Origin: Klebsiella phage phiKp_30
DNA: 33,740 bases
Strand: one strand, 5' to 3'
Sequence record: LC768498.2
The notes beneath the pieces were generated by a model that was not told where the DNA came from, searched no databases, and saw only the letters and a program-made list of their open reading frames with translations. This document shows, piece by piece, positions 8,509 to 8,890 of this stretch. A program made the translations under genes and the position numbers. How positions within the stretch are numbered: position 1 is the stretch's first letter; each line of letters opens with the position of its first letter.

Positions 8509-8574
8509 TTGATGTGCTCCGGGCGCAATTAATCCCCACAGCAGAGCTGCGGTATTCTTAGGTTAATCAACAAA

Positions 8575-8594
8575 ATAGACCACGGTGGTCTTAT
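8575..8594. promoter_or_regulatory. Omnt-like palindromic operator ATAGACCACGGTGGTCTTAT in the gp16-tailspike intergenic region. A palindromic -10 (ATCATATGAT) lies nearby.
   Basis: The core CCACGGTGG and the flanks closely match my recollection of the P22 mnt operator, AGGTCCACGGTGGACCT. The position matches the P22 immI control region between gene 16 and gene 9. Confidence 0.5.
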
Positions 8595-8890
8595 TGTGGA
8601 TACAAACAGTAGATCATATGATGCCGATCCACTTACAAAAGTGAGGCATCAAAATGGTATACGCTTCCCTTCCATCAGGAGCATACGTTTTTGTCGCTGT
8701 GGCGCATCCCGCGAGGAGCACGCATAAACATCCAACCATCACACCTTTTTTCATTATCTTCACCCAATAAAGTCACGGATTAGGATAATATAGTGATCAA
8801 AAGCTAATCTCTATGTCGATGCGAGGATTTATGGAAAGAGACCTATTGAACGCAGCATTCCTTATCTTTGGTATTGTGGTAGGGATGATG

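Follow-up and report, generated by a model that had tools for sequence, protein, structure and literature searches.

We analyzed a 33,740-nucleotide stretch of DNA from Klebsiella phage phiKp_30 (LC768498.2; hereafter, the window), which is most of the genome of a P22-like (Lederbergvirus-like) phage, focusing on the 382-bp gap between its gp16-like ejection protein gene (8891–11284, minus strand) and its tailspike gene (6604–8508, minus strand). The gap carries a palindrome that aligns with the operator of the P22 Mnt repressor (Omnt), and we consider it quite probable that the gap is a further-decayed 'ant moron' of the type found in phages ST64T and L, in which this operator is an orphan relic. 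An original prediction had instead read the palindrome as an operator retained in place while mnt and ant were relocated beyond the tailspike gene, so that the tailspike might be directly under Mnt control. In P22-like phages the immI region, to which these genes belong, has been described as a hypervariable and frequently degraded 'ant moron' (PMC2629481).

An Omnt-like operator upstream of the tailspike gene

The palindrome, ATAGACCACGGTGGTCTTAT, lies at 8575–8594 and occurs once within the window. Its perfectly symmetric part spans 15 bp (AGACCAC-G-GTGGTCT, 8577–8591, centered on 8584), while positions ±8 and ±9 are asymmetric. Its resemblance to known operators is far beyond chance. In 28 Salmonella phage records, ST64T, ST104, L, SE1, ST160, and SPN9CC among them, the intergenic block that separates mnt from gene 9 is 96–98% identical to 8577–8657 of the window; this 81-bp stretch of the window also has matches in E. 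coli prophages, and it is 97.6% identical to the Omnt/Pmnt block of ST64T, L, and ST104. Alignments with ST64T, ECONIH6, JEP4, and P22 place the palindrome in register with the annotated P22 mnt operator, with the Pmnt hexamers at the same spacing, which bears out the likeness to P22 Omnt that had been proposed. Judged by these alignments, 8576–8592 counts as a genuine Mnt operator, with the specificity of the ST64T/ECONIH6 type: it is a two-fold symmetric site of about 17 bp whose central core, CCACGGTGG, is identical to that of P22, and it adjoins the −35 hexamer of Pmnt inside overlapping divergent Pmnt and Pant promoters. One base separates the operator from this hexamer, as in P22, and the promoter spacers are 17 bp long. 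The E. coli ECONIH6 prophage, in which the adjoining mnt gene is intact, has exactly the same operator and promoter hexamers. A recombination joint at the outer left base of the operator (T8576, versus A in ST64T) was considered and rejected, as ECONIH6 is identical there and has an intact mnt.

The Pmnt homologue (8594–8622, plus strand; −35 TTGTGG at 8594–8599, −10 TATGAT at 8617–8622) aligns column for column with P22 Pmnt, TTGAGA-17-TATCAT. Its −10 hexamer, the counterpart of TATCAT in P22, is contained in the second palindrome, ATCATATGAT at 8613–8622, in agreement with the earlier suggestion that this sequence could serve as a −10. The Pmnt homologue as a whole scored below the threshold of a consensus promoter scan, and by homology we would expect it to be active. 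The Pant homologue, which points toward the tailspike (8599–8627, minus strand; −35 TCGGCA at 8627–8622, −10 TGTATC at 8604–8599), aligns with P22 Pant, TTGACA-17-TATATT, and is degenerate: its −10 hexamer lacks A2 and T6, the consensus scan did not flag it, and it is probably very weak.

The operator lies 68–84 bp upstream of the tailspike start codon, and between the two runs a conserved tailspike 5′ leader with a Shine–Dalgarno (SD) sequence (8509–8575, minus strand), which has homologues upstream of gene 9 in ST64T, ECONIH6, P22, and one of the E. coli prophages described below (L028). An operator directly upstream of the tailspike is nothing unusual: ST64T, L, ST104, JEP4, and many E. coli prophages, ECONIH6 and the loci L023–L029 among them, are normally arranged in this way. 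What the site lacks is a cognate ribbon-helix-helix mnt gene transcribed from Pmnt, of which only ATGG is left.

Deletion of mnt and the lipoprotein gene remnant

Homology to the mnt block ends four bases into mnt, at ATGG (8654–8657), and from 8654 to 8900 the sequence is about 81% identical to what follows gene 16 directly in those Salmonella phages. The two blocks lie 462 bp apart in ST64T and each is bounded by ATGG, one at the mnt start (2182–2185 of the locus examined, L001) and one inside a lipoprotein gene (2644–2647). The annotation of phage PM43 places Mnt and a convergent 97-amino-acid (aa) putative lipoprotein in that interval. In the window the two blocks are joined, and the comparison therefore indicates a 462-bp microhomology deletion between two ATGG tetranucleotides; the 4-bp junction at 8654–8657 (plus strand) consists of the former mnt start codon plus one base, preceded by the former mnt SD, GTGAGG, at 8641–8646. 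The deletion took the rest of mnt, the terminator shared by the two convergent genes (GCCCGGCGAACCGGGC, at about 2431–2446 of the ST64T locus and absent from the window), and the 3′ two-thirds of the lipoprotein gene.

What remains of the lipoprotein gene, a homologue of orf62 (8614–8754, minus strand; phrog_5685), comprises about 34 N-terminal codons (8754–8653) fused to 12–14 codons read from the mnt leader. The remnant retains the signal peptide and the lipobox LLAGC; in a tblastn search, residues 1–34 of the 97-aa PM43 lipoprotein matched it at 94%, and its DNA is 80.7% identical to that of ST64T. Upstream of it lies a promoter-like site recognized by consensus match only (8785–8813, minus strand, TAGAGA-17-TATTAT), which, with the intergenic terminator deleted, now faces the tailspike gene. 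A 38-aa open reading frame (ORF) at 8654–8770 (plus strand), noted earlier along with its SD GTGAGG, is present as described; it begins at the former mnt start, runs antisense through the lipoprotein remnant, and is an artefact of the deletion fusion.

No intact Mnt or Arc gene was found within the window: tblastn searches with the Mnt proteins of P22, ST64T, and JEP4 and with the Arc protein of P22 returned only a truncated gene at 6031–6225. An mnt of the ST64T/ECONIH6 type has the sequence MGRDDPQFNLRLP.... The deletion junction is supported by an independent k-mer assembly of run DRR406564, in which Logan contig DRR406564_191 is identical to the window from 6241 to 14508, across the junction, the 8,268 bp containing 0 mismatches. 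When three large collections of genome, viral, and metagenome contigs were searched for the junction, neither exact nor degenerate patterns gave a match, and a search of E. coli genomes with the right half of the gap gave a single, distant match.

A foreign ant/mnt2 cassette beyond the tailspike gene

Downstream of the tailspike lie an intact antirepressor-family gene encoding 242 aa (5273–6001, plus strand) and, convergent with it, a 5′-truncated Arc/Mnt-family gene of the type found in phage JEP4, which we call mnt2 (6028–6220, within an 80-aa ORF at 6028–6270, minus strand). The 242-aa protein had no matches in Pfam and was identified through PHROGs (phrog_1726, anti-repressor, E = 3 × 10−100). 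In the assembly collection, 125 blocks list an identical protein, and in 8 of the 8 loci displayed it is encoded within the ant moron of a P22-like prophage. The mnt2 fragment is 96.9% identical to residues 21–85 of JEP4 Mnt, and its match to the Pfam Arc profile starts at profile position 17. Roughly the first 20–30 codons are missing and the N-terminal, DNA-reading β-strand is entirely gone, a disruption that the original prediction had recognized; by sequence, the fragment is dead.

The segment from 5163 to 6225 is 99.3–99.6% identical to E. coli P22-like prophages (L023–L029) and about 90% identical to JEP4. The gene order in these prophages is 16 - ... - mnt1 - arc - ant, followed by the 242-aa antirepressor-family gene convergent with mnt2, then an operator and the tailspike gene. 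This home operator of mnt2, ATACCGAAAYGGTAC, occupies the position homologous to Omnt in L023–L029 and was not found in the window. The N-terminal strands differ as well, YDEAQFHLRLTHELH in the mnt2 type versus RDDPQFNLRLPYELK in ST64T, so the retained operator and the repressor fragment belong to different specificity types. The region upstream of the 242-aa gene carries neither operator type, and there is no arc gene; the cassette thus lacks these parts of a functional immI region. Perfect 50-bp direct repeats flank it, and together with the near identity to another prophage lineage they indicate that the cassette was acquired and not translocated. On this evidence the resident mnt was deleted in place, and the ant/mnt2 fragment came separately from another type of ant moron. 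Neither of the two cassette junctions was found in viral contigs.

In each of the E. coli P22-like prophages L023–L030 (approximately 4600–7150 of each locus), the ant moron holds two Mnt-family and two antirepressor-family genes, as mnt1-arc-ant and as the 242-aa protein gene with convergent mnt2, and it is mnt2 with its own operator type that faces the tailspike. At least three operator/repressor specificity types thus occur in the same slot: those of P22, of ST64T/ECONIH6, and of JEP4/mnt2. JEP4 (L003, approximately 5460–5660) retains what is left of the canonical leader and start of the tailspike gene, ATGACAGATAT, about 190 bp upstream of the tailspike gene annotated there. The annotated gene differs at its N-terminus, and the arrangement suggests that the 5′ end of the JEP4 tailspike gene has been replaced.

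Proposed origin of the operator as an orphan relic

We propose that the ancestral late operon carried, in order, gene 16, a 23-aa ORF on the opposite strand, the lipoprotein gene orf62, mnt on the opposite strand, Omnt/Pmnt/Pant, and the tailspike gene. In this scenario arc and ant would have been lost from the lineage before mnt was deleted, and mnt, left without a known target, would then have been lost through the ATGG-ATGG deletion of 462 bp. The same deletion took the bidirectional terminator and two-thirds of the lipoprotein gene, on its 3′ side, but spared the operator and Pmnt, both of which lie outside the deleted interval. With no cognate repressor gene in 33.7 kb and a degenerate Pant homologue, the operator is most likely inert in cis. 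We infer that the tailspike gene is probably transcribed by read-through of the late operon, to which the lipoprotein promoter, no longer followed by a terminator, may add.

Several points weigh against this account. The operator and the Pmnt hexamers are fully intact and exactly the same as in a prophage whose layout works, and the relic must therefore be either young or still of some use. The window is possibly not the whole genome, and a cognate mnt may be located beyond its ends or be supplied by a co-resident prophage. The strength of the promoters was judged from sequence alone. On the right side of the deletion the relatives are only about 81% identical, and the exact parent is not in the databases.

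The relocation put forward in the original prediction, in which mnt and ant moved across the tailspike gene and Mnt, made from its new locus, acts on the retained operator in trans, would bring the tailspike directly under Mnt control. A genuine operator does stand close upstream of the tailspike start codon, and both a Mnt-family fragment and an antirepressor-family gene are present downstream; the geometry described for them is also correct, since they are convergent, lie beyond the tailspike, and are inverted relative to the late operon. The movement itself does not hold up, because the resident mnt was deleted in place and the downstream genes were acquired as a foreign allele, as the identity to another prophage lineage and the bounding repeats argue. 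The truncated gene moreover lacks residues 1 to 20 or 30, DNA-reading strand included, and is of the mnt2/JEP4 type, with different operator half-sites. With no intact Mnt or Arc in the window, no ATACCGAAAYGGTAC site for mnt2 to pair with, and two conserved bases gone from the −10 hexamer of the Pant homologue, control of the tailspike by Mnt is not supported, and we regard relocation as largely refuted already and extremely improbable. Equally slim is the chance that the gap is an assembly artefact, a collapsed or chimeric join in a phage whose mnt is in reality intact. Exact 50-bp repeats do break k-mer assemblies, and the Logan contig ends inside one, but the junction at 8654–8657 is not at a repeat and shares only 4 bp, the contig spans it without a mismatch, and the 50-bp repeats are shorter than typical reads.

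A function in trans has somewhat more to recommend it, although we still think it unlikely. In such a case, Mnt from a co-resident prophage of the ST64T/ECONIH6 type would bind the orphan operator when the phage infects a lysogen, modulating antisense transcription from Pmnt into the 23-aa ORF and the 3′ end of the gp16-like gene, or forming a roadblock before the tailspike gene. The identity of the operator and Pmnt hexamers to a prophage with intact mnt would fit, prophages with that mnt type occur in both E. coli and Salmonella, and the deletion removed the terminator that formerly ended Pmnt transcripts. Yet a recent deletion equally predicts an intact sequence, there is no sign of selection, the junction appeared in none of the three large contig collections scanned, and the likely host is uncertain, given a tailspike that resembles Klebsiella phage fibers. 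A relic left by the decay of an ST64T/L-type moron remains the reading we prefer.

Hairpin elements and missing lysogeny genes

The repeats that flank the cassette belong to a set of three hairpins of about 50 bp, TTAGCAAGATACGCCGTAAACCCTCGCCCGACAGGGCGGGGAGCAGTCAC, all in the same orientation (plus strand): E1 at 5113–5162, E2 at 6221–6270, which is identical to E1, and E3 at 1089–1138, a loop variant. Each marks a missing lysogeny function. E1 truncates a NinX-like ORF at the point where relatives continue to xis-int-attP, E2 truncates mnt2, whose N-terminus is missing, and E3, just upstream of PL, stands in place of 707 bp that in locus L043 include a cI-type repressor gene; in the window that gene (region 992–1293) ends after its first ~20–34 codons (MKMYELARSRMKELGITQEK...). 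The cI-less E3 junction recurs in three other Logan contigs (L045–L047), from runs SRR32490243, SRR15853024, and DRR406564, the last being the window's own run, and the E3/PL junction was not found in viral contigs. Because of this cI-less junction and the lack of any integrase-sized ORF in the window, the sequence suggests that the phage is a naturally virulent derivative.

By sequence comparison, the hairpins resemble the right end of an IS200/IS605 insertion sequence (IS). The hairpin and the adjoining AGCAGTCAC are identical to the right end of ISEc46-like elements, and the hairpin unit ends at the right-end nucleotide of the IS, 12 bp downstream of the tnpB stop codon; both the subterminal position of the hairpin and the terminus ...GCAGTCAC are as in two ISEc46-like copies with different flanks. 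All three copies in the window are solo 50-bp units without tnpA, tnpB, or a left end. The hairpin core occurs in 665 of 5,426 E. coli genomes, with 260 of its 733 occurrences on plasmids. The hairpins might have driven these changes instead of being passive debris: as portable sites of recombination or excision, perhaps with the help of TnpA or TnpB, they would have deleted the lysogeny genes, captured the antirepressor cassette, and made the phage obligately lytic, leaving Omnt/Pmnt as the last handle for the Mnt of a resident prophage, but we hold this chain of events to be rather doubtful.

Other identities for the 50-bp repeat (an att core, an integron attC, REP/ERIC, FRT, and lox) were dropped, the match to the ISEc46 right end being decisive; no likeness to a tRNA 3′ end was apparent by eye. 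Loop differences among the copies argue against an engineering scar (FRT, lox), and the 'boundary sequence' of HK620/CUS-3 was rejected, CUS-3 bsq5 being an unrelated 502-bp stretch. A literature search with the sequence string gave no result. In one viral contig (L006, 5500–5610), a 9-bp sequence, TATTATTTC, is directly duplicated on the two sides of the 50-bp element, which fits insertion with target-site duplication and would be unexpected for IS200/IS605 transposition.

A probable small membrane-peptide gene adjoining gene 16

The gap also holds a hydrophobic 23-aa ORF (8831–8902, plus strand), MERDLLNAAFLIFGIVVGMMLFA, which was found as originally placed, has a good SD, and overlaps, in antisense, the last codons and stop region of the gp16-like gene. 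Conserved versions of it, with changes that are for the most part synonymous, occur in ST64T, E. coli MS 115-1, Kluyvera, and 18 viral contigs. Among six distinct DNA variants, in a homologue set somewhat biased by the search pattern used to collect it, the variable sites fall 10/4/14 by codon position, so that substitutions are mostly at third and first positions, and between the window and ST64T there are six synonymous codon changes in a row. This pattern suggests that the ORF is probably a real small membrane-peptide gene. It is unannotated in the records inspected (ST64T, PM43, ABTNLsp11242, and E. coli MS 115-1).

Gene setting of the window

The late operon lies on the minus strand and also includes the gp20-like (11285–12616) and gp7-like (12626–13321) genes; the gp16-like protein has an N-terminal SLT domain and a P22_gp16 domain. 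The early-left (PL) operon, on the plus strand, encodes N-like (1294–1686), Rad52-like (2619–3326), single-stranded DNA-binding (SSB; 3327–3797), exonuclease (3870–4550), and Abc2-like (4570–4854) proteins. The tailspike combines a P22-type head-binding domain with a receptor-binding part that, together with the next ORF of 69 aa (6395–6604), makes up a region (6375–8115) about 89% identical to tail-fiber regions of Klebsiella phages Kpn BU9 and vB_Kpn_K17alpha62. Outside the receptor-binding region the phage resembles E. coli and Salmonella P22-like phages, and its host is uncertain because of this contrast. A 91-bp stretch directly upstream of the exonuclease ORF and overlapping its start (3831–3921) shares 98.9% identity with a part of filamentous phage If1 known as the 'minor intergenic region'. 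An Rfam scan of 3500–9200 gave one match, RyhB at 5992–6047, which was below threshold (23.5 bits versus a gathering score of 55) and was treated as chance.

Implications and comparison with known systems

The gap is thus best seen as an ordinary decayed member of a known module and not as a new regulatory circuit, and in itself it matters little, as one more degraded variant of a hypervariable and frequently decaying moron. It does display a route of decay cleanly: without arc and ant, mnt lacks an obvious target, and in this phage a microhomology deletion removed it while leaving its operator behind. It also carries a warning that a retained operator near a paralogous repressor fragment need not be a rewired circuit, and that specificity types should be matched first. 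Two side observations may be worth more, namely the loss of cI, int, and both mnt genes in a phage whose cI, xis-int, and mnt2 losses are each marked by a hairpin, and the conserved, mostly unannotated probable gene for a 23-aa membrane peptide that adjoins gene 16.

Four known systems provide the closest comparisons. The right end of ISEc46 (IS200/IS605, tnpA-tnpB) matches the hairpins in the identical CCTCGCCCGACAGGGCGGGG and AGCAGTCAC and in the terminal nucleotide, whereas the window copies stand alone without tnpA, tnpB, or a left end, and their first ~20 nt differ. The source type of the cassette is represented by JEP4 and by E. coli P22-like prophages at the argW-type locus, with an identical 242-aa protein in L023–L029. 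In those prophages the pair occupies the slot between genes 16 and 9, and mnt2 is complete and points away from the tailspike gene, with its own operator between the two, whereas in the window the fragment lies beyond the tailspike, inverted, without that operator and with mnt2 cut short by the 50-bp element. P22 immI (mnt - Omnt/Pmnt/Pant/Oarc - arc - sar - ant) shares the operator core, its distance to the Pmnt −35, and the way in which the divergent promoters overlap; its half-site is not the same at positions 5, 7, and 8 (T-A-G-A-C-C-A-C in the window, A-G-G-T-C-C-A-C in P22). The P22 order 16-sieA-mnt-Pant-arc-ant-9, as previously cited, agrees with the annotated record, and relative to it the gap has no arc, sar, ant, their terminator, or sieA, its Pant is degenerate, and its mnt is deleted. 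The remaining system is the ant moron of ST64T, ST104, and L (gene 16 - orf62 - mnt - Omnt - gene 9), which like the gap has no arc, ant, or sieA. From it the window differs by the missing 462 bp, with mnt and the intergenic terminator, and by a 97-aa lipoprotein gene cut to ~34 codons, while it shares the site between genes 16 and 9, the Omnt/Pmnt block (96–98%), the beginning of the lipoprotein gene and the small ORF that follow gene 16 (~81%), and the tailspike leader.
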